A DNA stretch of 53,065 nt from a virus. Taxonomy: Duplodnaviria; Caudoviricetes. Positions 3,624-26,572 of this stretch are shown here, one piece after another. Below the pieces are notes generated by a model that worked only from the letters and a program-made list of their open reading frames with translations, made no database searches and was not told where the DNA came from. The translations under genes were made by a program, and so were the position numbers. Position 1 is the stretch's first letter. Every line of letters begins with the position of its first letter. Location of the stretch: the IMG/VR virus record IMGVR_UViG_3300031999_000029, positions 1-53,065 of that record; one strand, given 5' to 3'.

Positions 3624-3985
3624 AACACACTGTAAGCATAGCAATATCAAGGGCTTGTCCTGATCTTGTCTGATAAGACCTATTATGTAAACTCTTAGAG
3701 ATTTCGCAACGATTACGCACGCTTGCGAAAGCGTATGCGACATTTCATTACCTGAACAAAATGAGCGCGCGCCTTGCGCGAGGGTGGGGCGCACGCTCAC
3801 GCGCGAGACGCGCGAGAGGTCGCAGCCTGAACCCCCCGGCACCCCCCGGCGCGGCGAGGGCGAGGACTACCTACCCCGACTCGCGCGCTCGCGCGGGTGA
3901 CGCAAAGCGTATTGACAAAAACCCTACAGTATGAATCGGCACGCCTCCCCGCGTCAAAAATTTGTACGCGCGCCGTGTGAATGTG
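3624..3985. other. Non-coding region, candidate packaging-initiation or genome-end site
   Basis: AT-rich part, inverted repeat TTTCGCAA/TTGCGAAA (3702-3730), CGCG-rich tract, tandem ACCCCCCGGC x2 (3831-3850), AAAAATTT; directly downstream of the putative TerS. Confidence 0.35.
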
Positions 3986-3987
3986 TG

Positions 3988-4016
3988 TTGACATTAACCT
4001 CACGGTTTGAGACACT
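3988..4016 (+). promoter_or_regulatory. Sigma70-like promoter
   Basis: TTGACA-N17-GACACT upstream of the GGAGGAG RBS of the 4063 gene. Confidence 0.6.
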
Positions 4017-4027
4017 GACCGTGAGGG

Positions 4028-4241
4028 AAACGAACCGCGCCCGAGGGCGCACGGAGGAGACCGTGGTATTCATTCGAACGCACGAACAGGCGAAACAAAT
4101 TTTGGCCGACGAGCATATTGTGGATCCAATATGGCTCGGAGATGTAGACGATCCGGACCGTCTCGGTTGTTACCTAGACGAGCACATCGAGTGGTTGCGG
4201 ACAGAGGACGAACCGGAGCTGCGGACGTGGGCCAGGAGCGT
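4028..4241 (+). repeat. 214-bp dispersed direct repeat, copy 1
   Basis: Matches 21974-22187 with 2 mismatches (4109 A/G, 4205 A/C). Confidence 0.97.
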
Positions 4242-4458
4242 ACGTGATGATCTCAACGGGACGGGCGGTGACCCCATGACTACCCATAAAGCGGCGAAAG
4301 GGCCCGAGAGGATTTTTTGCGGCGGCACCTTCGACAACACACCGGGGAAGGTTGCGGTGCGGTGTCGTCGGTGTGGCCGGGTCTGCTACGAGAAAAACGA
4401 GGGAGACATTTGCTACGCTCCGGCGGCGAACGCACCGGAGGTGAAGGCGATCCCATGA
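4063..4458 (+). CDS. Hypothetical protein with C-terminal Cys cluster
   Basis: GTG 4063 after GGAGGAG; first ~60 aa nearly identical to ORF 22009; C..CxxC..C..C tail. Confidence 0.6.
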   Translation: MVFIRTHEQAKQILADEHIVDPIWLGDVDDPDRLGCYLDEHIEWLRTEDEPELRTWARSVRDDLNGTGGDPMTTHKAAKGPERIFCGGTFDNTPGKVAVRCRRCGRVCYEKNEGDICYAPAANAPEVKAIP

Positions 4459-6349: not shown

Positions 6350-7801
6350 ATGAGTTGCTTGTCGCAGACGGACGAGGATCGCGTTCGCGCCGCCGATCTC
6401 CTACACCTGGGTTTGGCGCAAAAATCCGCTAGCGCGTTCATGAGCTACGTGCTGCGCGACGAGAAGACGAACGAGCGGATCAAGCAAGCCCCGATTCACC
6501 AGGCGTGGCAGGCGTTGATCAATCAACACCGCCGCTTGCTCATATGGTCGTCGGTGGAGAGCGGGAAAAGTTCGCAAGTGAGCGTCGGTCGCACGCTCTT
6601 CGAGCTTGGCCGGAATACCGGTCTCCGTTGTTGCATCGTCTCGAACACGCAAGGTCAGGCCGGCAAGATCGGCGGAATGATCGCGAAGTACATCGAGGGG
6701 TCGGTCGACTTGCACGAGGTGTTCCCCGATCTGTTGCCCGACGAGCCGTGGACGAGTAGTCAGCTATTCGTGAAGCGGCAGACGATGGCGAAAGATCCGT
6801 CGGTGCAGGTGTGCGGCATTCACGGCAACATTACCGGATCGCGTCTCGACGTGCTCATCCTCGACGACGTGCTCGACTACGAAAACTGTCGTACGCCCGG
6901 GTTGCGGCAGGACTTGTGGGACTGGTACCACGCGACGCTGTCGGGGCGTCTGACGGCGGACGCTCGGGTGATCGTGATCGGCACCGCCTATCATCCCGAG
7001 GATTTTTTGCACCGCCTCGCGCGCACCGGAGGGTGGGCGGCGTTTCGGTACCCGGTGATCGATCCGGACACGAACGAGATCCGTTGGCCCGAGCGTTGGC
7101 CGGAATCACGCATCGAAGCCAAGCGCATCGAGCTTGGCCCTCTCGAATTCGCGCGACAGATGATGTGCGTCGCCAGAGACGACGCCGAAGCGCGGTTCAA
7201 GAAGGAATGGATCGATCTATGCCTGGCGCGCGGCGCCGACCGCGAGCCGCGCCCGAGCCTCGAAGCCGTGCCGCCGGGTTGCCGCACAATTACCGGAGTA
7301 GACTTGGCGGTGTCGCGCAAGAAGATTTCGGGCGACACCATTTTCTTCACGATCTTGGTGTACCCGAACGGGGACCGCGAATTGTTGTGGATCGATGGCG
7401 GGAAGTACAGCGGGCCCGAGATCGTCGACAAGTTGGTCGACACGCACCGACGATTCGGATCGGTGATGTACGTGGAGAACAACGCGGCGCAAGAATACAT
7501 CCTGCAATTCGCGCGCAGTGAGAGTGCGGTGACGGTGCAGCCGTTCACGACGGGGCGCAACAAGGCCAACCCGGAATTCGGCATCGAGTCTCTCGCCGTC
7601 GAGATGGCGAATGGCAAGTGGATCATCCCGTGCAAAGATGGCCATATTCACAAACAAGTGTCGATGTGGATCCAAGAGATGCTCTACTACTCGCCGGCGG
7701 CGCACACGGGCGACCGTCTCATGGCTTCGTGGTTTGCCCGCGAGGGTGTCGGCCGCGCCAAAAAGAGAGCGTGGGTCGGAAGGATAAACAACGCTCGCTA
7801 G
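6350..7801 (+). CDS. terL: Terminase large subunit
   Basis: Walker A-like SVESGKS, ITGSRLD and Walker B VLILDD, motif C IGT, nuclease acids in GVDLA, VENN and HTGDRLMA. Confidence 0.93.
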   Translation: MSCLSQTDEDRVRAADLLHLGLAQKSASAFMSYVLRDEKTNERIKQAPIHQAWQALINQHRRLLIWSSVESGKSSQVSVGRTLFELGRNTGLRCCIVSNTQGQAGKIGGMIAKYIEGSVDLHEVFPDLLPDEPWTSSQLFVKRQTMAKDPSVQVCGIHGNITGSRLDVLILDDVLDYENCRTPGLRQDLWDWYHATLSGRLTADARVIVIGTAYHPEDFLHRLARTGGWAAFRYPVIDPDTNEIRWPERWPESRIEAKRIELGPLEFARQMMCVARDDAEARFKKEWIDLCLARGADREPRPSLEAVPPGCRTITGVDLAVSRKKISGDTIFFTILVYPNGDRELLWIDGGKYSGPEIVDKLVDTHRRFGSVMYVENNAAQEYILQFARSESAVTVQPFTTGRNKANPEFGIESLAVEMANGKWIIPCKDGHIHKQVSMWIQEMLYYSPAAHTGDRLMASWFAREGVGRAKKRAWVGRINNAR

Positions 7802-8589: not shown

Positions 8590-10344
8590 ATGAGTAGCGC
8601 AACGAGAGTAGAACCACGCGGCGTCAAGCGCATGCTGAGTGCTCTTGCCGACAAGCTCTACAAGAGCGGCGGCGCCAAGCAAACGGAGACGATTGCGAGC
8701 GCGATGCAGAAGATCGCGCGCCTCGGCATGAGCCCGAGGCAGCAAATGCTCAATCGTTTGTGGGCATGGTATCGCTGCGAGAACTACGCCACGCGGCGCG
8801 TGGATTGGAACGGGCACGAAGTCGTCGACGCGCTTTCTCAGGAGTCGATTTCGACCGCCGGCTTCATCCCTCCGGGGTTCTACGACGCCGGAGCCAACCT
8901 GCCGATCAAGTTCCGCAAGCCGACGGCGCCGTACGCGTTGGTCAAGGTGATCGTCGACCGCTTCACCGAGTTGCTTTTCAGCGAGCGCCATCACCCGTTC
9001 ATGCGAGTCGAGGGTGATTCCGATACGGAGAACTACGTCGGAGCGCTCATCGAGGCGTCGCGGCTGTGGCCGAACATGATTCAGGCGCGGCAGTACGGCG
9101 GCGCCATGGGCACGGTCGCCATCGGGTTCGAATTCGTCGAGGGTGTGCCCGAGGTCGAGGTGCACGATCCACGCTGGTGCATTCCGGACTTCAAGGATCG
9201 CACCAAGCTGATCCTGAATTCGATCGAGAAGCGGTATATGTACGTCGTCGAACAGCGCGACGAAGTCACTGGCGAGTACGAAGAGATCGCCATGTGGTAC
9301 CGGCGCGTGATCGACACGGAGCGCGACGTTCTCTTCAAGCCCGCCCCCGTGGGCGACGGCAACGAGCCGCAGTGGGAGGTCGACAAGGAGACCGTGCACG
9401 GGTTCGGATTCTGCCCCGTGGTGTGGATCCAAAATCTGCCGGTGCAGGACGACATCGACGGCGACTCGGACGTTCTCGGCATCTATGACACTGCCGAATC
9501 GATCGATTCGTTGCAGTCGCAGGCGAACCTCGGCACGATTAGCAACTGCGATCCGACGCTCGTGGTCGTGACCGAAGACGAAATGCCCGAGATCAAGAAG
9601 GGCAGCGACAACGCGATCAAGTTGTCGAAGGGTGACGCACACTACATGGAGTTGCAGGGCTCCGGCGCCAAGTCTGCGATCGAGTTGGCCGACAAGTTCC
9701 GAAGCCAAGCGCTCGAAGTGGCGCAATGCGTGCTCGAACATCCGGACATGAGCCAGCGCACCGCGACCGAGATCGAACGCGCGTACTCTTCCATGATCTC
9801 GAAGGCGGACGTTCTTCGAGAGCAATACGGCGAGAAGGGACTGAAGCCGCTCATCATGATGATGATCAAGGCTGTTCGCCTCTTGCAAGAGGGGAAGATC
9901 AACGCCGAAGAGGGAGTCATCGAGAAGTTCGAGATCCTGTTGCCGCCGAGAGTGGTCGACGACGAAAACGGCGAGACGAAAACGGAGCCGCAGAAGCTCG
10001 GGCCCGGCGGCGTCTTCAAGTTGCAATGGCCGAAATACTTCGAGCCGCTTCTCGCCGACGTCGAGCTGGCGACGCGGTCGGCGGTCGCCGCGAGCGCCGG
10101 CGGTCTCGTCGATTTGGAGCACGCGATCAAGTTCGTGGCCGAATACTTCAAGGTCGGCGACGTCGACGCTATGATCAAGCGCATCAAATCCGAGCAACAG
10201 AAGGCGAGCGGGGCGACGGCCGATCAGACGTTGCAGATGCTCGGCGGCGGTTCGATGCCTGGCAGACCGATGCCGGGCCGCCAGACGTTCGGCAGACCAA
10301 TGCCGGGACGCCCGATGTCGAGCCCGTACGATTCCGAAGAGTGA
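8590..10344 (+). CDS. Portal protein
   Basis: 584 aa after TerL; KVIVDRFTELLF and HGFGFCPVVWIQNLP...DGDSD motifs resemble SPP1-like portals. Confidence 0.88.
   Translation: MSSATRVEPRGVKRMLSALADKLYKSGGAKQTETIASAMQKIARLGMSPRQQMLNRLWAWYRCENYATRRVDWNGHEVVDALSQESISTAGFIPPGFYDAGANLPIKFRKPTAPYALVKVIVDRFTELLFSERHHPFMRVEGDSDTENYVGALIEASRLWPNMIQARQYGGAMGTVAIGFEFVEGVPEVEVHDPRWCIPDFKDRTKLILNSIEKRYMYVVEQRDEVTGEYEEIAMWYRRVIDTERDVLFKPAPVGDGNEPQWEVDKETVHGFGFCPVVWIQNLPVQDDIDGDSDVLGIYDTAESIDSLQSQANLGTISNCDPTLVVVTEDEMPEIKKGSDNAIKLSKGDAHYMELQGSGAKSAIELADKFRSQALEVAQCVLEHPDMSQRTATEIERAYSSMISKADVLREQYGEKGLKPLIMMMIKAVRLLQEGKINAEEGVIEKFEILLPPRVVDDENGETKTEPQKLGPGGVFKLQWPKYFEPLLADVELATRSAVAASAGGLVDLEHAIKFVAEYFKVGDVDAMIKRIKSEQQKASGATADQTLQMLGGGSMPGRPMPGRQTFGRPMPGRPMSSPYDSEE
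10255..10320 (+). repeat. 15-nt degenerate tandem repeat (MPGRP) in the portal C-terminus
   Basis: Encodes MPGRPMPGRQTFGRPMPGRPMS. Confidence 0.85.
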
Positions 10345-12693: not shown

Positions 12694-14142
12694 GTGGCCC
12701 GCGAAGACCTGATCCCCGTGAAGCGCGCCGTGACCCGAATGGGCACGTCGTACGAGCAGACCTATTGGGTGCGCGCTCGGGAGCTGCGCGAGACGTTCGA
12801 GAAGAGCGGCGCGACGGCGGCGTTGAATCGAGCATTGGGGTCCACAACGGGGGAAGGATCGGAGCAGTGGTCGACCCGTTATCGTCAACGGCTACTAGAC
12901 AAATTGGTAGAGGCGGGGTTTTCTGCTGAAGTGGTCGCTACGTGGCCGCAAAGCCGCCGAGAGCAAACACTGACTCCAACGGAGTTGGCTTCGACGAAAG
13001 ACGCTTTGAGCAAGGAAATGTTGTCCGAGGCGTCTTCAGGAACGAAAACCGCCAAGACTATGCTCGACGATTGGGTTTCGTCTCCCGGCGAAGAGCGGAC
13101 GGCGAAGCTCCGCTCTCTCGCCACGACGATCGCATTCGAGGATCTCGACGGTGAAGAGTGGGACAAAGCCGTGCAGCAAGAGCGCGATCTCTTGGCCGAG
13201 AACGCGACGCACCACTACGACAAGCACTATATGTCTTCGTCGATTGCGGAGTATCGAGGCCAGTTCAAGCGCGAGGCGTACGCCGACATGCGCGACGAGG
13301 TGATGAAAACTCTCGCCGACGAATCGGTGAGTGAAGACGAAGACGTGGCAGAGAACGCCAAGGAGATTTTCGAGCTTCGTCGAAGCACGAGTCCCGAGCT
13401 GCGCAAGCAAGCCAACGACATGATCAACGAGCGCGTCTCGTACGAGCTGGAGACGCAAGGGAAGACCGAAGATGCGAAGTTGAAGGCGGACGAAGCCGCC
13501 GAAGCCGACCGCGACGAGTACGTGAAGCGCGTCGACAACGAATTCATGCGCTACACGGACGAGGACATTGAAGCCGTGTACGCTCTCGCGGCGGTGTCGC
13601 AGTCTCTCTACGACGAAGACACGGTCACGCTCTATCGCGGCATCAAAGGCGAGTACGCGAAAGACATTCGAGAGGCGGCGATCGACGCCGTAGCCAAGAG
13701 CGGCGCTCTAGATCAAGCGGAGCTGTTCCCCAAAGACACCCCTCTTCCGGTTGCCTACGAGGAGAATTTGGTCAAAGTCGAAACAGGAGTGATGTGCTCG
13801 TTTTCTGAAGACGTGAACAAGGCCAGGGGATTTACGGGCGACGACGGCGTTGTGATGAAAATGACGGTGCCGAAGTCGTCGATCTTGGCGTCGTATCGTC
13901 TTGGGTCGGAGGTCATGCACCAAGGCGAGAAAGAGGTCATTGTGCTGACGAAGGGGGAGTTTCAGATCAACCCTAATGACATCGAAGATGCCAAGGCGAA
14001 AGACTCTGCCTCTCCATTTCAACCCATGTTCGAAGAGGGGCATTGGCGGCAAATCGCTCGTGGTCGTGGACAAGATTTGTCCGGCCCGTTGCCGCCGCGA
14101 GAGGAAGAGTACCAAGAATCAGAGGGCGAGTGGGCCCCGTAA
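12694..14142 (+). CDS. ADP-ribosyltransferase (R-S-E clade) with N-terminal tag and acidic helical middle
   Basis: C-terminal VTLYRG, CSFSED..KA..F and QGEKEVIV give R, SxS and ExE in the expected order. Confidence 0.75.
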   Translation: MAREDLIPVKRAVTRMGTSYEQTYWVRARELRETFEKSGATAALNRALGSTTGEGSEQWSTRYRQRLLDKLVEAGFSAEVVATWPQSRREQTLTPTELASTKDALSKEMLSEASSGTKTAKTMLDDWVSSPGEERTAKLRSLATTIAFEDLDGEEWDKAVQQERDLLAENATHHYDKHYMSSSIAEYRGQFKREAYADMRDEVMKTLADESVSEDEDVAENAKEIFELRRSTSPELRKQANDMINERVSYELETQGKTEDAKLKADEAAEADRDEYVKRVDNEFMRYTDEDIEAVYALAAVSQSLYDEDTVTLYRGIKGEYAKDIREAAIDAVAKSGALDQAELFPKDTPLPVAYEENLVKVETGVMCSFSEDVNKARGFTGDDGVVMKMTVPKSSILASYRLGSEVMHQGEKEVIVLTKGEFQINPNDIEDAKAKDSASPFQPMFEEGHWRQIARGRGQDLSGPLPPREEEYQESEGEWAP

Positions 14143-14157
14143 GCGAGGGAGAATACA

Positions 14158-14571
14158 ATGGCAGACGAAGCAATCAAGAAACCGGAAACCATTCACATCA
14201 AAAAGTTCGCCGACGGCAAAGAGACGCCGCTGGAGACTCACCAGAAGCTCGCTTGGAACAGTGCGCGCTGTCCGTGCGGTGCGCCGGCCGTCGTGCGCGC
14301 GATCTCGTTCGCTCCGTTCAAAGAGCTGAACGATCAGTGCCCCGAGCTTCTCGTGAAGATGGCGCACTCGAACGGCGGGCAGATCCCGATGGTCGAATTC
14401 AAGTACGGGAAGTTCGTTCGCATCGGCACCGCGTTCGCGTGCGCGCGGTGCAAGAAAGACCTGGCGAAAGCCATGAGCAAGAAGCCGTCGTGGGTGTTGT
14501 GTGAATTCGATTACGGGCCGAAGCCGATCAACGAACAGGTTTTGGTTCCGGGGGCGTTGGTGAAACCGTGA
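14158..14571 (+). CDS. Putative Zn-binding hypothetical protein
   Basis: GAGGGAG RBS; CxC and CxxC. Confidence 0.7.
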   Translation: MADEAIKKPETIHIKKFADGKETPLETHQKLAWNSARCPCGAPAVVRAISFAPFKELNDQCPELLVKMAHSNGGQIPMVEFKYGKFVRIGTAFACARCKKDLAKAMSKKPSWVLCEFDYGPKPINEQVLVPGALVKP

Positions 14572-14948
14572 GTGAGAACCTTGCGAAGTGGGTCAAGCTG
14601 AAGACGCAAAAGCCCGACGAGAACGAAGAGAAGCCGCTGCATCCGGATGAGAGCAAGGCTCTCAAGAAGTTGCAGCGCGAAGCCAAGGCTGCCGGCGCGA
14701 CGCTGGCCACCGGTGGCAAGGGCGGATTGAGCCCGTCTCTCGTTCTCGGGGTCATGCGCCGCGACGAATTCAAGTGCAAAAAGTGCGGCAAGCAAGAAAT
14801 GCTGAGTGTGCACCACAAGGGTCACCTCGAAAACCCCGCGTCGAAGTGGCTCGCCAAGAAGGGCAAGAGCAACGACCCGAACGCAATCGCCACCATTTGC
14901 GCGTCTTGCCACGACGACATTCACGAGGAAGACCGCGAGAAGGGCTAG
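14568..14948 (+). CDS. HNH endonuclease
   Basis: RRDEFKCKKCG...LSVHH...NDPNAIATICASCHDDIH. Confidence 0.85.
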   Translation: MSENLAKWVKLKTQKPDENEEKPLHPDESKALKKLQREAKAAGATLATGGKGGLSPSLVLGVMRRDEFKCKKCGKQEMLSVHHKGHLENPASKWLAKKGKSNDPNAIATICASCHDDIHEEDREKG

Positions 14949-14951
14949 TGT

Positions 14952-16130
14952 GTGAGGGTCTCGCCGCAAAAGCTGTCCGCTCTCGTGCAAGTCGAGAAGG
15001 AAGTCACGCGCGGCGGACGCACGCATACGCAACACTATTGGGTGCGGGGGGATAGAGATGAGGCGGAACTTGGTAAGGCGGGGGTGCCGCGTTTAGACGT
15101 TGGACCGAAAGCGACGGGACACCCCAAAGCGCCTAAATTTGAGGTGGATTCCTCCGTTCGATTCGGGATTCAAGAGAAACTGAAGGCAGCGAAAGAGGAA
15201 GTGCAAAAAGCCGAGCGATGGGTTCGAACAGATCATCCTGAATTCACGTCTCTGTCGGATATTTCCCGTCGTGCGACTATTCCTTTTGAGGCGCAGCCCG
15301 CAATTAACGCAAGCACGATGGCCGTGACTGCGGGGGCAAGGGTTTTGTCTCACGAATTGCGGACGACGTTTCACGGAGACGGCAACGGGTTGGAGACGTA
15401 CGAGGCCCGAGACAAACTAGAAAACGAAGGCTGGCTCGGTTCGTGTTCTTCTACGGGCGACGTGAAGTTGCGCACGGATCAGCACTTGGCGATTTGGCGG
15501 GCGATCGATCGTGGCAAAGTGGAGTTCGAATCCGAGTACGAAGCATTCCACACACTGACGCACGAGCTGTTTCACAGCGTGAACTATGCGCAGTCCGAAT
15601 CGAAATCCGAAACGCTTCATCCGAAATCCGCGATTGAGGAAGCCATCACCGAGATCGATGCCCGTCAGTACACGGAATCAATCATCAAAGCATACGGCTT
15701 GAAGCTGAATCCGGAGCTGCATCGAGACGCCCCGCTTTATACGGATTCGTCCGTTTACAACATGACTGTTACGCGTTCGGTGGCATACACGAGTTTCGTG
15801 CAGAATTTCGGGCGCACCGTGTCGGCAATCGAATTTGGATCGCCAGGTCAGATAGGGACCGAACAGATCAAGGGAGAAGACGCACACGAATGGGCGACGG
15901 GGTGGGCGGCAAAACTCAAGAGTGTGGGAGCCGATGAACGATACGAGACTTTGGCCGAGCGGGCTTTCGAGACATTTCGCGTGCCGGAGACGGCGCCTGA
16001 TTACGAGAATCAAAAACGACAGCTCGCCAACGACATGAAATTTTGGCTTGAAGGGAAAGGCCCGGAGACTATTTCTGGAATGAGGCGCGTGATTCAAGAG
16101 CGCGCAACGCGGGCGAAGGAGTTTGTGTGA
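14952..16130 (+). CDS. Zincin-like metallopeptidase domain protein with N-terminal tag
   Basis: TLTHELFHS (HExxH) plus downstream IEEAITE as likely third ligand. Confidence 0.65.
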   Translation: MRVSPQKLSALVQVEKEVTRGGRTHTQHYWVRGDRDEAELGKAGVPRLDVGPKATGHPKAPKFEVDSSVRFGIQEKLKAAKEEVQKAERWVRTDHPEFTSLSDISRRATIPFEAQPAINASTMAVTAGARVLSHELRTTFHGDGNGLETYEARDKLENEGWLGSCSSTGDVKLRTDQHLAIWRAIDRGKVEFESEYEAFHTLTHELFHSVNYAQSESKSETLHPKSAIEEAITEIDARQYTESIIKAYGLKLNPELHRDAPLYTDSSVYNMTVTRSVAYTSFVQNFGRTVSAIEFGSPGQIGTEQIKGEDAHEWATGWAAKLKSVGADERYETLAERAFETFRVPETAPDYENQKRQLANDMKFWLEGKGPETISGMRRVIQERATRAKEFV

Positions 16131-16378
16131 TGGATCCCATCATCCAAGCCTTGATCGAAGCCGAGCGCGTCATCCTCGACACCAGAGCGACGCACGGAGA
16201 GATCCAAGCCGCGATCTCCAAAGTCGACGCCTTGAACAATGCGACGGCGTCGGCCGCGATCCGCCTCACGGCCGGCGAGTGGCATTCTCCGGAACACATG
16301 AACGGCAGCGGAACGCCGCAACCCGAGCCGAGCCCGAAGGCGAAAAGGCTCTCGACTTTCTTGGACCGAAACAGGTAA
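16127..16378 (+). CDS. Hypothetical protein
   Basis: AAGGAG RBS, GTGA overlap. Confidence 0.55.
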   Translation: MMDPIIQALIEAERVILDTRATHGEIQAAISKVDALNNATASAAIRLTAGEWHSPEHMNGSGTPQPEPSPKAKRLSTFLDRNR

Positions 16379-16387
16379 GGATCTAGT

Positions 16388-17380
16388 ATGTCGGACACCT
16401 GGCAAGAAGAGCTGCATCCTCGAAGCGAAGCCGGCAAGTTCGCGGCGAAAGCAGAAGCCGCGCAAAATGCCGCGGAAGAGTCGATTGCAAAAGAGTCGGA
16501 GGCGCTGTCAAAGCTGTACCGCGCGAAGTCCGGCCCGAAAATTCCGAACGCTACGCCTGGTGTCTCGGAAGCAGATCGCACGAAAGCTATCGCCAAGGGA
16601 AAGGCGATTAGCTCCCTCTGCGGTGACAAGATAAAGGATCAGACGATTCGTGACTTGCTCGACGAAGGACGTTGGGATCTTGAGGCTTCCGAGAGGAAAA
16701 CGATGTACCGGTCGCCCGGTGAAATTTTCGAAGTGACGATTACACCGCGCGCGACAGAAACCGTCAAAGAAACAAGATCCCAATGGAGTGACAATCCGAT
16801 TTACTACGACGAGAGCCTTTCCGAGATCGGCGAAGACGGCTATCCGAAACTCCGCTCGGATTCTGGGTATTCGGAGAGTATCCCCGAGGAAGCCGGCGAG
16901 CCTGGTTTCATCTATCGCGGTGTTGGCCATGCCGAGTATCAAAGCATCGTCGAGTCGGGGAAGGTGCAATCTCGCGGCGCGTACAACATCGGTGATCGGC
17001 AAGTTGGGTTGACGTATTTTGCCGACCGCGGCGGAACGGCAGCAAGCTATGCCGGCGGGTTTCAGCCTTATCACAAGTTGCCGACGTTCGAAGAGCCGTC
17101 GTATATTGTGAAGATCGCGCGACCGCCGGATGAATTGATCGACAAGACCGCTGCGCCCGAGGGGGAGGTTGGTGTTCGCGGTGCGGTTCCCACAACCGAA
17201 ATTGTTGCGGTGTACGAGGTTCGCCCCTACATGATGAAGAGTGGTTCTGTCGAGTTGATGCGCGGCTACTCGAAAGGCGAGACGGTGTATGGTGAGGGAA
17301 GCCGCGCGTCGCCGAGCGTGCATGTAGCCTACAAAAAGGTCTACGATTCGCGCGAGAGCGGCGCTACTACGAAAGAGTAG
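16388..17380 (+). CDS. Putative ADP-ribosyltransferase-fold protein with WxEELHPR...GKF tag
   Basis: FIYRG...SIVESG...TYFAD...AASYA...YIVKI...EVGVRGAVP pattern. Confidence 0.6.
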   Translation: MSDTWQEELHPRSEAGKFAAKAEAAQNAAEESIAKESEALSKLYRAKSGPKIPNATPGVSEADRTKAIAKGKAISSLCGDKIKDQTIRDLLDEGRWDLEASERKTMYRSPGEIFEVTITPRATETVKETRSQWSDNPIYYDESLSEIGEDGYPKLRSDSGYSESIPEEAGEPGFIYRGVGHAEYQSIVESGKVQSRGAYNIGDRQVGLTYFADRGGTAASYAGGFQPYHKLPTFEEPSYIVKIARPPDELIDKTAAPEGEVGVRGAVPTTEIVAVYEVRPYMMKSGSVELMRGYSKGETVYGEGSRASPSVHVAYKKVYDSRESGATTKE

Positions 17381-17382
17381 TC

Positions 17383-18603
17383 ATGCCTTCCAAGTCTCGA
17401 GTCTACCAGGCGACGATGAACGAGCACCGGCGCCGGCTTGCTCGGGTGGTAGACCGCGGATCTGTGCCGCAGCTTCGCAAGCTCTACGATGATGCCGGCA
17501 AGTTCGCGGCGAAGGCTGCCGGGGACGCCGCGAATCGAATGGCGGCGCTCAAAGACAAGTGGCCGAAAGCCGAGTTCTCGGGAGACCTGTCGTCTGACGA
17601 AATCAATAGTGCGTTGCAACACGATCGCGACAGGCACCGAGACATCACTCGGGCGTTCTCCCACGGCGAGCTGTCTTCTGATGAGGTCAAAGAGTTGGGC
17701 GTCTCCCTCGGTTCGAATCTTCCGATCAAGTTGGATCCGGATCGGGACTACTACCACGTGACGACCGGCGCCTCGGGCGTTCTCGAATCGGGGCTGAAGA
17801 CGCGGGACGAGCTTGGGGGCGTGGCGTCCGGTCTCGGCGGCGGTGCTTCCGATACCATCTCCCTTACTGACGATCCCGCAGTGGCGCAAACCATTTACGA
17901 CACGATGCGAGAAGGGCAACAGGTGGCGAGGGGGGAGATCAAACCGATCGATCTCTACAATGCGGCGTTCGAAGGCAAAGGGGCGAAGCGCGCGTTTGCC
18001 GAGGATCTCATTCGAATGCACGACGCCCACCATTCTCCTGGCGATCCGCTTCCTTCGGGAATGGATCTGGCACTAGCCGAGAGGCGAAGCGTGCGCGCGA
18101 ACGAATCGAGTACGGATTCGACCGTGCCGCGAGTCGGCATGGGCATGTTCTTTCCGGAGCCTGCTTTGCCGGCTGGTGCCGAGGGCTTCAACCTGCACAC
18201 GACCGCCGACGGCAAAACCGTGTTCGGCGGGTATGTTCGGGGAATGACAGACGAAGAGAAGCTCGACAGCCGCATGGAATTCTACAAGCGGTTCCTGATG
18301 GTGCGAGAGGGCGCCGGCGGTCCCGAGGATCCCCTTTTCTACATGACGGACTATCACGCACTCGCGGCTAAACCTGTCGAAGACATCGCCTTGCTGAAGG
18401 TCCGCGCCACCCCCGGATCCCAAGGCTACCGCATGAGCGCACTCGGAGAGATCCGCGTCTACACCGGCGACGTTCTCAAGGTGACCGACGTGGAGCGCCG
18501 CCCGATGTCTTCTCGCCACGTGGCTCCCGAGGTCTCCAAGCGCGGCGACAAGGAAGAGACGGCGCAGCTCGCCCGGCTGTCGAAGGCTAAGAGAGCTGCA
18601 TGA
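17383..18603 (+). CDS. Putative ADP-ribosyltransferase-fold protein fused to a MuF-like N-terminus
   Basis: YYHVT...VLESGLKTR...ISLTDDP.VA...LGEIRV; first 35 aa paralogous to the 19491 gene. Confidence 0.55.
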   Translation: MPSKSRVYQATMNEHRRRLARVVDRGSVPQLRKLYDDAGKFAAKAAGDAANRMAALKDKWPKAEFSGDLSSDEINSALQHDRDRHRDITRAFSHGELSSDEVKELGVSLGSNLPIKLDPDRDYYHVTTGASGVLESGLKTRDELGGVASGLGGGASDTISLTDDPAVAQTIYDTMREGQQVARGEIKPIDLYNAAFEGKGAKRAFAEDLIRMHDAHHSPGDPLPSGMDLALAERRSVRANESSTDSTVPRVGMGMFFPEPALPAGAEGFNLHTTADGKTVFGGYVRGMTDEEKLDSRMEFYKRFLMVREGAGGPEDPLFYMTDYHALAAKPVEDIALLKVRATPGSQGYRMSALGEIRVYTGDVLKVTDVERRPMSSRHVAPEVSKRGDKEETAQLARLSKAKRAA

Positions 18604-19415
18604 ACGGCGTCGCCGAATGGACTGAAGAGCTGCACCCGCGCGGGCCGGGCGGCAAGTTCGCGTCGAAATCCGGCGCCGCCTCTCGCATCTCGAAAGAGAG
18701 CGAGTGGAAAGAGACGCGGACGCTTCGACGTTTGAGTGAAGCCAAGAGCAAGCCGCAATCTCCGCGAGACGCGTCGACGCGAATCGACTGGGAATACGAC
18801 GACAGGATGCGGGCGGTGCGCCCGGATCAGTACGTTCCGACGCGAGCCTCTCTCACCGAGGCGGAAAGTCGGATGAAGGGCTTCGATGTGGAGCACGCCG
18901 CCGTGTACGACGTCGAGGGCAACATGCTTTGTCGCTTGACGGACCGCAAAAGTGATAGCGTGGCGATCACGCCAGAGTTGCGCGATGAGTGTAGGAAGCG
19001 CGGCGACGCGGTCTTCACGCACAACCATCCGGAGGGCGACTATTTCAGTGGGGAAGATTTGATGCTGGCGAATGCCGCCAATCTGAAAGAAATGCGTGCC
19101 GTGCGCCCGAGCGGAGAGACGATCGTCGTCGCGCGTCCCGAGACCGGTTGGCCGAAATTGGCGGCGAACGAAGCACTTGCAGACGATCTCAACACGGCGT
19201 ATGCCCAAGCCAATCAGTCGATGCGAGATCGCATGGGCGTCGTCGTTACCGCTGCCGGCGGCAAGCCGTGGGAAGGGTCGTCGGCAAAAGGATACTCAAA
19301 GGAGTTGTGGAATGAATTCCGATTCGAAGAGGCGCACAAATATCTTACACCGGCTCTCGAAAAACACGGGATCCGCGTTGCGATCGTTCCGGCGGGCCAT
19401 CGACCCCAAGCATGA
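18600..19415 (+). CDS. JAB/MPN+ metalloenzyme domain protein with WxEELHPR...GKF tag
   Basis: EHAAVYD...FTHNHPEGDYFSGEDL is E...HxHP...SxxD. Confidence 0.72.
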   Translation: MNGVAEWTEELHPRGPGGKFASKSGAASRISKESEWKETRTLRRLSEAKSKPQSPRDASTRIDWEYDDRMRAVRPDQYVPTRASLTEAESRMKGFDVEHAAVYDVEGNMLCRLTDRKSDSVAITPELRDECRKRGDAVFTHNHPEGDYFSGEDLMLANAANLKEMRAVRPSGETIVVARPETGWPKLAANEALADDLNTAYAQANQSMRDRMGVVVTAAGGKPWEGSSAKGYSKELWNEFRFEEAHKYLTPALEKHGIRVAIVPAGHRPQA

Positions 19416-19490
19416 TCCGCGCGAAGTGATCCACTTGGATCAGTCTCACGCCGATCTCGTGTACGGTCCGCCGAAGGGCAGGATCTAGTC

Positions 19491-20447
19491 TTGCCAAAGC
19501 TGCCAGGCGTCTACCGCTCGATGCTCACGGAGCATCGCCGTCGGCTCGACCGTCTCGTCGACCGGCAGGGGCTCGTCAGTCTCAAAAAGCTGTACGCGAA
19601 CGCGCAATCCGAGCTGGAGCGTCAGCTCCGAGTGCTGCCGAAGCGTCTCGGCAACTCGTTCACAGCGCACCATTCGCGGATCATGCTGGCTCAAGTGAAG
19701 CAAGGCCGAATGATGTTGGCGCAGAAGATGGCTGGGGAGATGGCGGGATTGACGCGGCAGGCGCAAACGGAGTCGTTGCGCGGATTGATCGTTGACTTGA
19801 CTACGCTCGAACGTGAGTTCACGGGCGCCGACGTCGTGTTGCCCATCGAGGACGCGGCTCTGTTTCAAGGCGTCATCGACGGCCGGCGCGAGTCCCTGTT
19901 GCGCACGAACGACGAGAGCTTGGCTTACTACACCGCCGATGTGGTCGAGGGTATCGAGGACGATCTTTCGTTGGCCTTGGCGATCGGAGAAACGACGTCC
20001 GACACGATCGATCGAGTCATGGACGGGCTCGACAACGAGTGGTGGCAGGCCGAGCGCATCGTTCGCACCGAAACCCTTTGGGCCGCGAATTCCACGCAAG
20101 CCGACGGTCTCGAAGCGTCGGCCGAAGTGTTCGACGATTTGCACATGCGGTGGGAAGAATACGTTGACGATTCCACGGGGCAGCCGTTGGACGAGAGGGT
20201 CGACGACGATTCTCTCGCCATGCACGGGCAGATCATTCGCCCCGGCGGACAGTTCTACTTTCCCGACAGCTACATCGATCGTTCGGATCCGAAAGTTGCC
20301 AAGCGGCTCGAACGGTTTCGCGGTCAGTCGTGGGCGTTCCCCCCCATGCGACCGCAAGATCGAGCTACGGTGAGTCCGGTACGTCCGGGTTGGGGGATCC
20401 CCGGTTGGCAATGGGTGGACGGAGATCGGGTTGTGTGGCCCGTATGA
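19491..20447 (+). CDS. Head morphogenesis protein (MuF / SPP1 gp7 family)
   Basis: AERIVRTE, MHGQI and PP.RPQDR motifs; located between portal and scaffold; TTG start. Confidence 0.85.
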   Translation: MPKLPGVYRSMLTEHRRRLDRLVDRQGLVSLKKLYANAQSELERQLRVLPKRLGNSFTAHHSRIMLAQVKQGRMMLAQKMAGEMAGLTRQAQTESLRGLIVDLTTLEREFTGADVVLPIEDAALFQGVIDGRRESLLRTNDESLAYYTADVVEGIEDDLSLALAIGETTSDTIDRVMDGLDNEWWQAERIVRTETLWAANSTQADGLEASAEVFDDLHMRWEEYVDDSTGQPLDERVDDDSLAMHGQIIRPGGQFYFPDSYIDRSDPKVAKRLERFRGQSWAFPPMRPQDRATVSPVRPGWGIPGWQWVDGDRVVWPV

Positions 20448-20611: not shown

Positions 20612-21076
20612 ATGGCGGTCGGCGGCAAGAAGTTGAAAGCTCTCGTGGAACGCGATTCGTCACCTTTCGGCGGCAAGAAGTTCAAAAAGCCCGTCGAGGA
20701 AGAGCCCGAAAAGGACGAAGAGGGCGAAGAGGACGAAGCGGCCGAAGAGGAAGACAACCCCGGTAACGAAGACGAAAGCGAAGAGGGAGAGGGCGAAGAG
20801 GTAGACGTCGCCGCCATCGGTTCCGAAGTCCAAGAGGGTCGCGGCGAGCCCGAGATCATGGAGCTGACCAAGGGCTACGATCCCGAGCAACACGGCAACC
20901 CGCCGTCGTGGGTCGAGGACGAAGAGATTTGGGAGAAGGCCAAGGAAGCGGTCGATCCCGAGGGTGACGGTTCGAAGTACGATCAGCCGTGGGCCGTCGT
21001 GGCGCACGTCTACTCCCGTATGGGCGGCGGCTTGAAGTCCGAGGGCGGTGGCGACGAAGAGGAAACGGAAGAATAG
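20612..21076 (+). CDS. Highly acidic hypothetical protein
   Basis: GAGGAGG RBS; Glu-rich, with a DEEIWEKAK...WAVVAHVY..MGG module. Confidence 0.8.
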   Translation: MAVGGKKLKALVERDSSPFGGKKFKKPVEEEPEKDEEGEEDEAAEEEDNPGNEDESEEGEGEEVDVAAIGSEVQEGRGEPEIMELTKGYDPEQHGNPPSWVEDEEIWEKAKEAVDPEGDGSKYDQPWAVVAHVYSRMGGGLKSEGGGDEEETEE

Positions 21077-21078
21077 TC

Positions 21079-21228
21079 GTGGCGCGCAGCTACTACGTGG
21101 GCCCGACAGGGCAGCACATCTACATGAAAAGCAACCCCGGTCCGGTAGTCGTCGGGCACATGCGCAATCAAATCTTCCGCCAAGGGTTGCCGATGTCGGC
21201 ACACTTGGCGGAACCGAAACGACGATAG
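21079..21228 (+). CDS. 49-aa protein, paralogue of the C-terminal half of ORF 22009
   Basis: GTG 21079; YY...G...Y.KSNPGP...GHM.NQ.F.QGLPMSAHL.EP shared. Confidence 0.65.
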   Translation: MARSYYVGPTGQHIYMKSNPGPVVVGHMRNQIFRQGLPMSAHLAEPKRR

Positions 21229-21497: not shown

Positions 21498-22093
21498 CCA
21501 TGAAAGATCCTCACAGCGGTGACCCGATGTGGCACACTCGATCTGCCGAGTGGAGAGGGGCGCAGCGCCGTGCAGAGGACACGGCAAAGCAGTTGCGTAG
21601 GCAGATCGAACCCAAACTCAAAGGGATGGGGCCAGAAAAGCGGCGCGAAATGGAAGGGCTGATTCGATCTGTGGAAGCTGCGCCGCGCGGTGTGCAAGTC
21701 GAGTTGCTGCCGGTAACTCCGACCCCGATGGATACGCCGGAAGCGTTTGTTTCGAGAGTGTTCAAGGAAACGGAACAAGACACGATCGCAAAAGCTGCCG
21801 AGCACGCTGACAAGGGCGAGATGTCTTCGAGCGCGAAGCTCGCGCTGTCTGACGCGCGCAAGCTGTCTGCAAAGGGGGATCACGCGAACGCTATGAATAG
21901 GGCGCGCGATTCTCTCAAGTATTCTGTCGGTGTGCTGCATCCCGACTATCAGAAAGCCGACGCGCTAGCGAGAAAACGAACCGCGCCCGAGGGCGCACGG
22001 AGGAGACCGTGGTATTCATTCGAACGCACGAACAGGCGAAACAAATTTTGGCCGGCGAGCATATTGTGGATCCAATATGGCTCGGAGATGTAG
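21494..22093 (+). CDS. Hypothetical protein whose C-terminus runs out of frame through repeat copy 2
   Basis: SSAKLALSDA...A..RARDSLKYSVG..HPDY module ends just before the repeat at 21974. Confidence 0.6.
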   Translation: MTMKDPHSGDPMWHTRSAEWRGAQRRAEDTAKQLRRQIEPKLKGMGPEKRREMEGLIRSVEAAPRGVQVELLPVTPTPMDTPEAFVSRVFKETEQDTIAKAAEHADKGEMSSSAKLALSDARKLSAKGDHANAMNRARDSLKYSVGVLHPDYQKADALARKRTAPEGARRRPWYSFERTNRRNKFWPASILWIQYGSEM

Positions 22094-22187
22094 ACGATCC
22101 GGACCGTCTCGGTTGTTACCTAGACGAGCACATCGAGTGGTTGCGGACAGCGGACGAACCGGAGCTGCGGACGTGGGCCAGGAGCGT
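21974..22187 (+). repeat. 214-bp dispersed direct repeat, copy 2
   Basis: Matches 4028-4241 with 2 mismatches; includes RBS and start codon. Confidence 0.97.
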
Positions 22188-22392
22188 CGGAAGCGGCGCA
22201 CGAGATTCTGCGGCACAACAAAAGTCGATCGAAACCGGCACCCGTGGCGGTCGCTACTACGTCAGCGCGACCGGCGCCAAGGTCTACGTGAAAAGCAATC
22301 CCGGTCCCATTCACCTCGGCCACATGCAGAACCAAACCTTTTACCAGGGGCTTCCGATGTCGGCGCACCTGAATGAGCCGCGCAGAAAGTAG
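22009..22392 (+). CDS. Chimeric hypothetical protein
   Basis: N-terminal half from the repeat, then TGTRGGRYY and a 21079-like C-terminal half. Confidence 0.7.
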   Translation: MVFIRTHEQAKQILAGEHIVDPIWLGDVDDPDRLGCYLDEHIEWLRTADEPELRTWARSVGSGARDSAAQQKSIETGTRGGRYYVSATGAKVYVKSNPGPIHLGHMQNQTFYQGLPMSAHLNEPRRK

Positions 22393-25168: not shown

Positions 25169-26572
25169 ATGCCTGATTTTTCAACGATTTTGATGGCTCC
25201 GGACATCCGAGCGCTCACTCAAGAAAACATTCTGGAGCGCGCCTTTCACGACGCACTCTATCCACGGAACCTGTTCCGTGGTGAGGCCATGCCGCAACTG
25301 TGGCCCAACAACGTCGGCGACACGATGGTGTTCACCGGCACCGGTCTTCTGAAGACGAAGCAGAAGGCGCTCGTGCCCGGCACCGATCCGACCCCGAGTC
25401 AGTTCCAGTATGAGCAGTGGACGGCTCAGTTGCAGCAATACGCGGACGCGATCGACACGCACATGCCGTCGAGCATCACCGCGATCGCTTCGCTGTTTCT
25501 CCGCAACGCGCAGCAACTCGGCCTCGGCGCCGCGCAGACGCTCAACCGCATCTCGCGCAACAAGATGTACAACGCGGCTCTCTCCGGCTCGACCGTCGCG
25601 GACGGCGGCCCGCAGAGCGGCACGACCCTTCGGGTCAAGCGGCTGAACGGCTTCACCCGCGCCCGCCGGCCGGATCTTCCGCTCGGCAGTGCGGTGCGTT
25701 TCGACACCGTGTCGCCGAACAACAAGTTGGCGATCCGGGTGTTCGACAACGGCGCTGACGCGGCGTTCAACGTGATCGGCTTCTCGGCCGACACCGCCGG
25801 CGACGAGGCGGGCCCCGGCACCTTGACTCTGGAATCCGCGATGACGGCAGTGGCCGCTCGCGCCTATGTGGTCGCAAACGACCGCACCGTTCTGGTGCGT
25901 GTCGGCGGCGGCCTCAAGGTCGACGATGTCGGCTCCGGTGACAAGTTCACCCTGGCGGACATCCGATCGGCAGTGGCGCGGCTCTGGTCGCAGAACGTGC
26001 CGGAGCAAGCCGACGGTCGCTTCCACTGTCACATCGATCCGATCAGCCAGGCTCAGATTTTCGCCGACGATCAGTTCGCTCGGCTGCTGACCTCGTTGCC
26101 GGATTTTTTCATGTACCGGCAATTCGCCATCGGTGAGCTGCTCGGCACCGTGTTTTTCCGCAACTCCGAGTGCCCCGGCCCGGACACCGTCGAAGGCGGT
26201 CTCACGGCGTCGTACTCGCAGGACGATCCGTTCGCCGGCGAGCTTTACAACGACGGCACCACGAGCGGCGTGAAGATTCATCGTCCGCTGTTCGTCGCGC
26301 AAGGTCTACTCATGGAATACTACCAGGATCTTTCCGGCCTCATCACCGAGGCGGGGATCACGGGTGCCGTGGGCGAGCCCAAGGTGACGAACAACGGCAT
26401 CGAGATTTACAGCGATCGGATCCAGCTCATCATCCGTTCGCCGCTCAACCGGTTGCAGGACATGGTCAGTACCGCGTGGAAGTTCATCGGTGACTGGCCC
26501 ATCCGAACCGACAGCGTGACGGGCGACGCCGCCAGGATCAAGCGCGCTCTGATCGTCGAGCACGGAGAGTAG
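25169..26572 (+). CDS. Major capsid protein (HK97 fold, N4-gp56-like features)
   Basis: 467 aa after the scaffold, AGGAG RBS, strong codon bias; GDT..F, LQQY, IGEL.G..F and PLNRLQ...WK motifs. Confidence 0.88.
   Translation: MPDFSTILMAPDIRALTQENILERAFHDALYPRNLFRGEAMPQLWPNNVGDTMVFTGTGLLKTKQKALVPGTDPTPSQFQYEQWTAQLQQYADAIDTHMPSSITAIASLFLRNAQQLGLGAAQTLNRISRNKMYNAALSGSTVADGGPQSGTTLRVKRLNGFTRARRPDLPLGSAVRFDTVSPNNKLAIRVFDNGADAAFNVIGFSADTAGDEAGPGTLTLESAMTAVAARAYVVANDRTVLVRVGGGLKVDDVGSGDKFTLADIRSAVARLWSQNVPEQADGRFHCHIDPISQAQIFADDQFARLLTSLPDFFMYRQFAIGELLGTVFFRNSECPGPDTVEGGLTASYSQDDPFAGELYNDGTTSGVKIHRPLFVAQGLLMEYYQDLSGLITEAGITGAVGEPKVTNNGIEIYSDRIQLIIRSPLNRLQDMVSTAWKFIGDWPIRTDSVTGDAARIKRALIVEHGE

Follow-up and report, generated by a model that had tools for sequence, protein, structure and literature searches.

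Proteins injected together with phage DNA govern the first minutes of infection, including anti-restriction and host takeover, and they are hard to recognise from sequence. In T4, internal proteins destined for the head and for injection carry an N-terminal capsid targeting sequence, which the prohead protease removes. Conserved junction motifs are also familiar from the CdiA (VENN) and Rhs (PxxxxDPxGL) proteins, in which the motif marks the border of the constant and variable parts, its DNA supplies the homology for swapping, and orphan cassettes are found. In the "linker" model of Susskind and Botstein, short conserved sequences between modules are said to direct homologous exchange. Polyvalent proteins, as the main text of Iyer et al. 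2017 (PMC5512222) describes them, combine 2 to 15 effector domains within a single polypeptide and are predicted to be loaded into the head and injected. The diversity of polymorphic toxins is described as arising through cassette recombination (Zhang et al. 2012, PMC3482391).

The window analysed here, the whole 53,065-nucleotide stretch of tailed-phage DNA, contains a short recurrent peptide, Tag 2, which the first-pass annotation had read both as a protein address and as a DNA crossover point for swapping C-terminal domains, as in polymorphic toxin systems. Judged by its sequence, Tag 2 is the local copy of a widespread phage motif; it is likely to be an effector-module header whose DNA mediates the in-frame gain, loss and swapping of modules.

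The gene order in the window is TerL (6350-7801), portal, cargo, MuF and MCP (25169-26572). The cargo region is bounded upstream by the portal gene (8590-10344, + strand; PHROG portal families, best E=8e-10) and downstream by a MuF-like head morphogenesis gene (19491-20447, + strand), which matches Pfam Phage_Mu_F at E=0.003, below the cut-off, and is 42–48% identical to its relatives in contigs L004 and L005. Three tagged ORFs are present on the ORF map, all on the + strand. ORF A (16388-17380, 330 aa) consists of the full tag, a linker of ~30 aa and body A; ORF B (17383-18603, 406 aa) is a chimera of a MuF-like N-terminus, a half-tag and body B; and ORF C (18600-19415, 271 aa), whose start codon and the stop codon of ORF B overlap (ATGA), consists of the full tag, a linker and body C. 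Just upstream of the first tag, the ORF map and the alignment of relatives identify an ORF of 83 aa (16127-16378, + strand), whose last ~44 residues also terminate a 1088-aa protein of contig L038; it contains a mosaic breakpoint at 16247, where sequencing run X2 has a loose end. An HExxH motif was seen by eye in the ORF at 14952-16130. As in the polyvalent proteins of PMC5512222, the cargo is encoded with a portal-terminase packaging module. Unlike those proteins, the modules of the window are separate ORFs with one body each, rather than 2 to 15 domains in a single polypeptide; motif-bearing relatives elsewhere do have the multi-domain polyvalent layout.

Placement of the motif puts copy 1 of the tag, WQEELHPRSEAGKFAAK, at 16400-16450 (+ strand, residues 5–21 of ORF A) and copy 3, WTEELHPRGPGGKFASK, at 18618-18668 (+ strand, residues 7–23 of ORF C). 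Full tags thus head the ORFs starting at 16388 and 18600, as first proposed; position 17383, given for the half-tag, is instead the start of ORF B, and the half-tag AGKFAAK itself lies at 17494-17514 (+ strand, residues 38–44). The exact 20-mer GCCGGCAAGTTCGCGGCGAA occurs in two copies, at 16430-16449 and 17494-17513, and with its flanks the first forms a 26-nt stretch (16427-16452) in which 24/26 positions are identical. A third copy with two mismatches, at 18648-18667, contains a 13-nt exact core at 18650-18662. These positions, including the core, were recomputed and agree with the original claim, and a repeat search of the window recovered the same 20-mer family independently (D3, D5). By chance, 0.03 matches to the 20-mer are expected, and at least three were obtained in 0 of 100 shuffles.

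Downstream of the tag, divergence had been described as complete. This holds for A and B, which show no significant similarity when compared beyond the tag, but A and C align with 25/49 identical residues (E=3e-11), and their similarity continues for ~30 residues past it. The 38 N-terminal residues of ORF B (17383-17496, + strand) share homology with the N-terminal ends of three MuF proteins (alignment; BLASTP, 19/38 identical), correspond to a part of MuF upstream of its Pfam domain region, and end their homology exactly after A38. ORF B would be the scar of a second, illegitimate join, from MuF codon 38 to tag codon 12; in short-form relatives, described below, body B bears a full tag (386-aa ORF).

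Comparisons with nearly identical phages provide the principal evidence for recombination at the tag. In blastn alignments, window position 16452 is joined to 17491 in L038, L079 and L098/L099, three contigs from separate assemblies, and precisely the 1,064 bp separating the 20-mers are therefore missing from them (16450-17513 or, equivalently, 16430-17493; blastn, junction alignments and an X2 contig). The segment is present in the window and in L104, and contains body A with its stop codon, and also the MuF-like N-terminus. In the three contigs lacking it, sequence from upstream of the first tag passes, within the 20-mer itself, into sequence from downstream of the half-tag, and the short form is an in-frame gene with the full tag and body B. 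One upstream context and tag can thus carry either body A or body B, an in-frame C-terminal swap. Both forms also occur in a single sediment run, X2, where one contig spans the whole insert (16423-17522) and another continues from 17494 onward but is preceded by the 10 letters upstream of copy 1. The 1,064 bp are therefore a presence/absence polymorphism with its switch point inside the 20-mer, and the crossover point originally proposed is borne out in natural variants. The junction at the exact 20-mer, being common to three contigs, may reflect a single inherited ancestral event, either a deletion or an insertion.

It is barely credible that the DNA is ordinary here, with the 20-mer identical through the codon bias of a conserved peptide, and the short form an assembly artefact or a random in-frame deletion. 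GC-rich codon bias does favor identity (P~0.011 for a second copy with exactly these codons), and selection favors in-frame survivors wherever joints arise. Nevertheless, given identical residues and the codon usage of the window, six identical codons have P~0.003 (a single post-hoc observation), and at the codon level the DNA identity of the 20-mer exceeds what protein constraint demands. Nor does an artefact account for a junction shared by three contigs of independent assemblies and by Logan contigs from another run: an exact repeat of 20 nt is shorter than the usual assembly k-mers and cannot collapse an assembly graph. The switch falls exactly within the repeat, and its flanks differ in divergence; mismatch densities relative to the window on the two sides of the junction are 0.69 vs 0.08% (p=0.005), with further pairs of 1.22 vs 0.49% (p=0.03) and 5.3 vs 0.7% (p=0.03).

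Other variants fall at or near the tags. First, the third tag is followed by body C in the window and by a long body with an N6 DNA methylase in L098/L099; blastn and junction alignments place the breakpoint at 18718-18719, 51 nt after the tag, and run X3 has a loose end at 18718. Second, L104 and run X3 (joint 17514 to 19251) share another natural deletion, of 1,728 bp (17523-19250), with its junction at the 8-nt microhomology GCTGCCGG (17515-17522, repeated at 19251-19258). Third, protein P0002 carries an identical 17 residues fused to an unrelated kinase-like body. The tag zones make up 5% of the region and hold 3/5 distinct breakpoints (p~0.001, for zones defined post hoc); the other two, at 16247 and 17633, lie away from the tags. 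This concentration, expected if the 20-mer is a crossover point in related loci, is seen in close relatives; in an all-against-all blastn of 33 viral loci the ends of homology are not generally clustered at tags. In distant loci, the tags are islands of 39–71 nt at 82–90% identity. The exact 20-mer was found among viral contigs only in that of L038. With two IUPAC letters it matches 71 metagenome stretches, with tag context in five loci on three contigs (L078/L079, L098/L099 and L104); the other 66 stretches are unrelated and have no tag context.

At the protein level, the general motif is [WF]-x-[EP]-x-x-HPR-[DG]-x-x-G-[KR]-F, spans ~20 residues and is usually followed by a Gly/Ser/Ala-rich linker. 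The profile search suggested in the first pass, run against 1.84 billion representative proteins, showed the motif to be widespread (375 proteins at E<=1e-3, 28 of them at E<=1e-10), with 1–9 copies per protein in proteins of median length 985 aa and maximum 3673 aa. The stricter pattern ELHPRxxxGKF matches 33 viral loci, and 34/35 matches (32/33 loci) are in frame in ORFs >100 aa, with the aromatic residue that the pattern does not require. In cellular genomes it gives 63 matches against ~70 estimated by chance (34 bits of pattern information, ~1.2e12 positions), 2–3 of them tag-like. With P0001, the protein of the window itself, left out, a total of 348 instances, spaced at a median of 275 aa, occur in 145 of 149 listed proteins that were examined. 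In phage polyvalent effector proteins, the motif stands either at the N-terminus or in the stretches between domains: the first instance is at most 60 residues from the N-terminus in 74–78 of the 145 proteins, and in proteins <450 aa it lies inside the first 42 residues in 16/20. Overlap with Pfam domains occurs in 2/74 cases vs 11.8 expected at random placement, a value as low being reached in 0.05% of 2000 trials.

The domains found with the motif match the repertoire of polyvalent proteins set out in the main text of PMC5512222 (ART-PolyVal, InPase, Kinase-PolyVal, RadC/JAB, NUDIX and zincin peptidases). Among 85 motif proteins, ART is present in 20 and Zeta toxin in 10, and further proteins carry NUDIX, InPase, SAM lyase, TopoIB, kinase, MuF (4) or portal (1) domains. 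Because ART and Zeta toxin domains are common, and MuF-associated toxins are reported from temperate phages (Jamet et al. 2017, PMC5576092; PMC3482391), the tagged genes could be a strict polymorphic toxin system, in which MuF-type toxins serve bacterial competition with immunity genes and orphan cassettes. The two share a head-assembly context and variable C-terminal effectors. In the MuF toxins of those papers, the MuF domain is itself the N-terminal trafficking part, whereas here a motif of ~20 residues precedes every module and is also present on portal fusions and unfused proteins. Phage_Mu_F is absent from ORFs A, B and C in Pfam searches, and ORF B has only the 38-residue N-terminal piece. 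The tagged genes abut or overlap with no immunity-like small ORFs between them on the window ORF map, and the ORF maps of the window and L038 contain no orphan cassette arrays. SAM lyase, NUDIX, InPase, TopoIB and DNA methylase are moreover of anti-defence or takeover type, and a strict toxin system is highly improbable. What stands of the original analogy is the conserved junction motif with variable bodies exchanged at it (the A/B swap and the kinase-like and methylase bodies), as in CdiA and Rhs. In those secreted bacterial proteins the motif occurs once, before the C-terminal toxin, and orphan cassette arrays and a secretion-system trafficking domain accompany it; the header is repeated, in proteins of a phage head module whose virion location is predicted from their genes.

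That context is consistent: a head or packaging gene (portal, MuF or capsid) lies within 4 kb at 21/24 motif loci, in agreement with the linkage of polyvalent genes to portal-terminase genes in PMC5512222, and in HHTV-1 gene 13 lies between the portal-position gene and Mu gpF. This fits an address and, equally, a signal for processing. In the latter case, polyvalent proteins would be cut at or near the headers by a prohead protease or a zincin-type cargo peptidase, which would free their domains, N-terminal copies on single-domain ORFs being gene-fission leftovers or short propeptides. Up to nine copies per protein at domain boundaries, with Gly-rich linkers next, have the layout of polyprotein cleavage sites, and zincin-like peptidases are predicted to process polyvalent proteins in the text of PMC5512222. 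Head maturation proteases adjoin several motif loci, and the window has the HExxH ORF. In contrast, the scanned ORFs of its head module include no detected protease, and in the 78/145 proteins headed within 60 residues, 12 of them within the first 10, nothing upstream is left to remove. Protease specificities usually differ among phages, and the motif is kept across unrelated portals and hosts. Cleavage at the header therefore seems unlikely, if still worth serious consideration.

The core of the motif (HPR, G[KR]F and the aromatic residue) is kept in phages of very different hosts, haloarchaea included, which points to a partner or a chemistry that varies independently of head proteins. It is conceivable, but quite improbable, that the header acts only after injection, as a docking or refolding element for each delivered domain in the host and with no part in capsid loading. 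Any partner that archaea share with many bacterial phyla would need to be almost universal, and there is no indication of one; head-assembly modules also accompany the genes at the 21/24 loci noted above. The T4 capsid targeting sequence is likewise a short peptide on otherwise unrelated proteins, and the header's N-terminal position in 78/145 proteins and its head-gene context are compatible with such a signal. The T4 sequence is confined to the N-terminus and has no likeness to the header, which is also internal and repeated.

The preferred explanation is that a header precedes each effector module of polyvalent proteins encoded between the portal and MuF/capsid genes. In many phages, one giant protein links the modules in a row, with up to nine headers, whereas in this phage they are separate, closely packed ORFs with a header at each start. 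Because every module begins with a header, genes that are otherwise unrelated share short patches of identical DNA at their headers, and recombination at these patches would remove, insert or swap whole modules in frame. Whereas the modules of the Susskind-Botstein model are gene blocks, those here are protein domains, and the header DNA that links them encodes protein and is selected at that level. It is a real possibility, somewhat short of an expectation, that the header is an address, a handle for the loading of each module into the capsid, its retention there or its release. Proteins already fused to portal or MuF also carry the motif, although an address would seem superfluous in them. 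More tentatively, the header could be a near-universal loading and ejection signal of bacterial and archaeal tailed viruses that doubles as a recombination linker for polyvalent arsenals.

A header before each effector module would serve as a simple sequence flag for cargo in metagenomes, and exchange at the header would account for the assembly and break-up of giant polyvalent proteins. The variants described here represent a rare natural, population-level case of linker-mediated modular exchange, in near-identical genomes from the same sediments, and the header offers a concrete peptide for questions of capsid loading or processing. If it is a loading signal, its 20 residues would mark injected effectors in whatever phage genome they occur, and would offer a way of loading reporters of choice into capsids.

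Neither a model of the header motif, in Pfam, NCBIfam or the PDB, nor a paper on it was found. Four tag segments gave nothing relevant in Pfam at E<=10, NCBIfam on seven proteins returned no model covering the motif, and the tag profile had 0 matches to PDB sequences at E<=10. Literature searches on the motif strings and on packaging signals of polyvalent proteins found no relevant paper, and no recurrent header motif was found in the main text of PMC5512222. Megablast of 12–22 kb of the window against cultured phages gave no match, and tblastn of the 29-aa tag against them gave six records at E 2–5 only, although HHTV-1 (gene 13) and the Gordonia phages GodonK/Phendrix (gene 67/66) are cultured viruses with the motif; tblastn of P0003 found 36 records, all through its MuF domain. 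A word-indexed protein search with residues 1–40 of ORF C gave two candidates only, and with the whole ORF only itself. No relatives of ORFs A and B were found among viral contigs. The closest relatives by MuF, L004 and L005, have Tag 1 and lack Tag 2, and Tag 1 is present in 0/149 proteins of the Tag 2 set, which sets the two apart as separate systems.

No Pfam match at E<=1 was obtained for bodies A, B and C. The Atlas look-alikes of ORFs A and B score 0.78–0.85, below 0.9, and are leads only, including the weak lead that body A is ART-like. A match of the neighboring ORF at 12694 to DRAT (E=1.7e-4) falls short of the cut-off. Because the AF2 model of ORF C, made with no alignment, is unusable (pLDDT 39.6), the suggestion that body C is a candidate JAB/RadC-like domain draws on a BLASTP stretch that is not significant and on visual recognition of an HNHP..S..D motif. 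For the tag alone, AF2 gives moderate values, with a pLDDT of 67 overall and 77 in the core.

In head-module genes, the motif W-x-EELHPR-x-x-x-GKFA-x-K (Tag 2) stands as a header ahead of effector modules, and the DNA encoding it serves as a recombination joint that changes the body behind a given header. The window is ~60% complete (CheckV; 53,065 bases) and carries its head module in the left half; megablast with its 12–22 kb stretch finds no cultured phage that matches closely. The large terminase (6350–7801; phrog_38, E=6e-63) and portal (8590–10344; PHROG scan) are followed by a MuF-like gene (19491–20447; Pfam E=0.003, below cut-off) and the major capsid protein gene (25169–26572; family scans). 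The ~9 kb between portal and MuF is tightly packed with plus-strand ORFs that have weak family matches or none, and the final three of these are tagged. ORF A (16388–17380, plus strand, 330 aa) and ORF C (18600–19415, plus strand, 271 aa) start with the full tag; ORF B (17383–18603, plus strand, 406 aa) contains the half-tag AGKFAAK as residues 38–44. A 20-mer within the tag DNA is exact at 16430–16449 and 17494–17513 and recurs with two mismatches at 18648–18667. Three such matches occur in 0 of 100 shuffles, and an independent repeat search also recovers the family, bearing out the tag and repeat reported in the first-pass annotation. The DNA identity exceeds that expected from peptide conservation, because six identical codons at the six shared residues have P ~0.003 under window codon usage. 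Complete divergence downstream, also claimed there, holds for A and B, which have nothing else in common outside the shared tag part by pairwise comparison, but not for A and C, whose likeness persists ~30 residues past the tag (25/49 identical, E=3e-11).

Residues 1–38 of ORF B are homologous to the N-terminal ends of the MuF proteins encoded in the window and in the related loci L004 and L005; eight columns of the four-way alignment are invariant. This homology ends exactly after A38, where the MuF proteins begin to differ and ORF B continues with GKFAAK. Judged from the alignment, ORF B is a chimera.

Comparisons with related loci provide direct population evidence supporting the crossover role proposed in the first-pass annotation. 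A metagenome scan with the 20-mer returned 71 stretches, 66 of them unrelated matches; five loci from three contigs are near-identical relatives. A degenerate motif search of viral contigs yielded a further locus, L038, in which the body of ORF B directly follows a full tag. First, contig locus L079 is 99.3% identical to window 13430–16452 and then 99.9% identical to 17491–18812 (blastn), and the 26-nt overlap of the two alignments includes the 20-mer. Second, the joints in L098/L099 and L038 are identical to that in L079 (blastn and junction alignments). Since the alignments meet in this overlap, the short-form contigs lack exactly the 1,064 bp between the repeats; they encode an in-frame 386-aa gene joining the full tag to body B. 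The three short-form contigs may have one ancestral event in common. Third, the sides of the joint differ in mismatches to the window, left versus right, in L079 (0.69% and 0.08%, p=0.005), L099 (1.22% and 0.49%, p=0.03) and L038 (5.3% and 0.7%, p=0.03). With different histories on either side, the joint is better explained by exchange between lineages than by clonal deletion alone.

Other variants lie nearby. Locus L104 has the long form, like the window, and a second deletion, 17523–19250, at an 8-nt microhomology starting 2 nt past the second 20-mer. L098/L099 diverge from the window 51 nt beyond the third tag copy (18618–18668); the long body that follows there contains an N6 DNA methylase domain (Pfam E=8e-6, above cut-off). 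Three of the five distinct breakpoints in 13430–19424 fall within tag zones covering 5% of the region (p ~0.001, with zones set post hoc), and those at 16247 and 17633 lie elsewhere. Window 16247–16378 corresponds to L038 3839–3970, with homology beginning abruptly at 16247, a mosaic joint without link to the tag. It encodes the final ~44 residues of the 83-aa ORF that lies ahead of the first Tag 2 copy; in L038 these residues form the C-terminal end of a much longer protein (1088 aa). In L038 (4388–6801) the ORF B body ends after ~80 residues (window 17633), and two ORFs resembling DNA methyltransferases by eye follow.

Parts of the tagged stretch are present in nineteen sediment sequencing runs, and contigs from four of these were compared with the window. 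Run X2 contains a contig spanning the whole insert (16423–17522, depth 20) and a second in which 17494–17633 has directly upstream the ten bases found just before repeat copy 1 (depth 133); long and short forms therefore coexist in one sample. Run X3 contains the joint 17514 to 19251 and a loose end at 18718. Assembly-graph collapse is ruled out as a source of the joint, because the repeat is shorter than the assembly k-mers. Immediately after the second 20-mer, position 17514 exhibits a G/A polymorphism. L104 and the X2 long-form contig have A, matching the base after copy 1, so their exact repeat is 23 nt; this hints at conversion between the two copies.

The motif extends well beyond this group. 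The pattern ELHPRxxxGKF identifies 33 loci in viral contigs, and 34 of 35 matches are in frame within long ORFs and share features outside the pattern, namely an aromatic residue 2–3 positions before E and D or G after R. In 596 Gb of cellular genomes there are 63 matches, close to the ~70 expected by chance (estimated from a pattern information of 34 bits and ~1.2e12 positions), and only 2–3 are tag-like, from a Gemmatimonadota MAG and Halorientalis persicus. The profile search that the first-pass annotation had suggested, run with a profile built from 26 tags on a set of 1.84 billion representative proteins, retrieves 375 at E<=1e-3, of which 28 reach E<=1e-10. Among the matches listed, excluding the window's own protein, 145 of 149 contain 348 motif instances, 1 to 9 per protein, with a median spacing of 275 aa and a three-residue spacer in 339. 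A Gly-rich stretch comes after the consensus, which reads [ED]-[WF]-[DN]-[EP]-x-x-H-P-R-[DG]-x-x-G-[KR]-F. The header lies within 60 residues of the start in 78 of the 145 proteins and within the first 42 in 16 of 20 short proteins.

Pfam scans covered 24 of 30 distinct viral tag ORFs (the other six being near-duplicates or very short) and 85 of 150 listed proteins. ADP-ribosyltransferases occur in 20 of the 85, Zeta toxin kinases in 10 and MuF in four; portal fusions are also seen, together with NUDIX, InPase, SAM lyase, topoisomerase IB, 2H phosphoesterase, GNAT, kinase, peptidase and RadC/JAB domains. These scans revealed no conjugation markers. Of 74 cases, two have a header overlapping a Pfam domain stretch, where 11.8 would be expected. 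At 24 loci, 81 of the 107 ORFs nearby were scanned with PHROG (the 26 omitted being overlapping alternative frames), and 21 loci have a gene for head formation or packaging no more than 4 kb away; L023, L029 and L033 have no such neighbour within that distance, and in L029 the tagged ORF is itself fused to a portal. HHTV-1, a cultured haloarchaeal virus, carries the motif in gene 13, which has the terminase and portal-position genes on one side and Mu gpF on the other. L004 and L005, the closest window relatives by MuF, have a separate N-terminal tag (Tag 1) and lack Tag 2, so the Tag 2 cargo is accessory.

Each module would need its header for capsid handling, whether loading, retention or release. 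Such an address is a plausible if tentative reading of the sequences, and is favoured over a pure cleavage site because only 2–10 residues precede the header in many proteins. Proteolytic processing at the header is rather unlikely; repeated copies between domains do resemble polyprotein cleavage sites, and fusions to portal or MuF carry headers too, which counts against an address. Action after injection is more doubtful still. An AF2 model of the tag alone, in which a small hairpin-like turn links R to F (moderate confidence; pLDDT 67, core 77), favours none of these roles. Parallels to the header are the CdiA/Rhs junction motifs, the T4 capsid targeting sequence and the Susskind-Botstein linker model.

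The header motif, its breadth and its recombination-linker role appear to be undescribed. Pfam, NCBIfam and PDB have no entry over the motif, and literature text searches on motif strings found nothing relevant. What is already known is the general kind, polyvalent or virion-borne effectors. The proteins that bear the motif fall among the phage-type polyvalent proteins of Iyer et al. 2017 (PMC5512222); no mention of the header was found in the main text of that paper. MuF polymorphic toxins, as presented in PMC5576092 and PMC3482391, are alike in context and logic, but the window's tagged genes are not members.

Other repeated elements occur in the window. Tag 1, V-x-R-x-G-...-YWV[RK], at 12694–12780 and 14952–15050, opens ORF 12694–14142 (weak DRAT-type ART match) and ORF 14952–16130 (HExxH, by eye), and recurs in L004 (~4503) and L005 (~1779 and ~2656). 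It is absent from all 149 Tag 2 proteins and thus represents a separate system. Directly after MuF, a 9-nt periodic repeat (20696–20813) encodes a highly acidic Glu/Asp-rich stretch of ORF 20612–21076, which has no family match in the window scans and is possibly scaffold-like. Two ORFs between MuF and the capsid gene close with a ~35-residue peptide, SNPGP..GHM.NQ.F.QGLPMSAHL.EP (~21100–21228 and ~22290–22392, from translations), each followed by small ORFs ending KPF.VSK[RK]. Finally, a 214-nt direct repeat (99% identity; 4028–4241 and 21974–22187, 17.9 kb apart) encodes a 60-residue segment, 95% identical between ORF 3931–4458 (aa 45–104) and ORF 22009–22392 (aa 1–60). It is another module common to different bodies, and large deletions could use it as a substrate.
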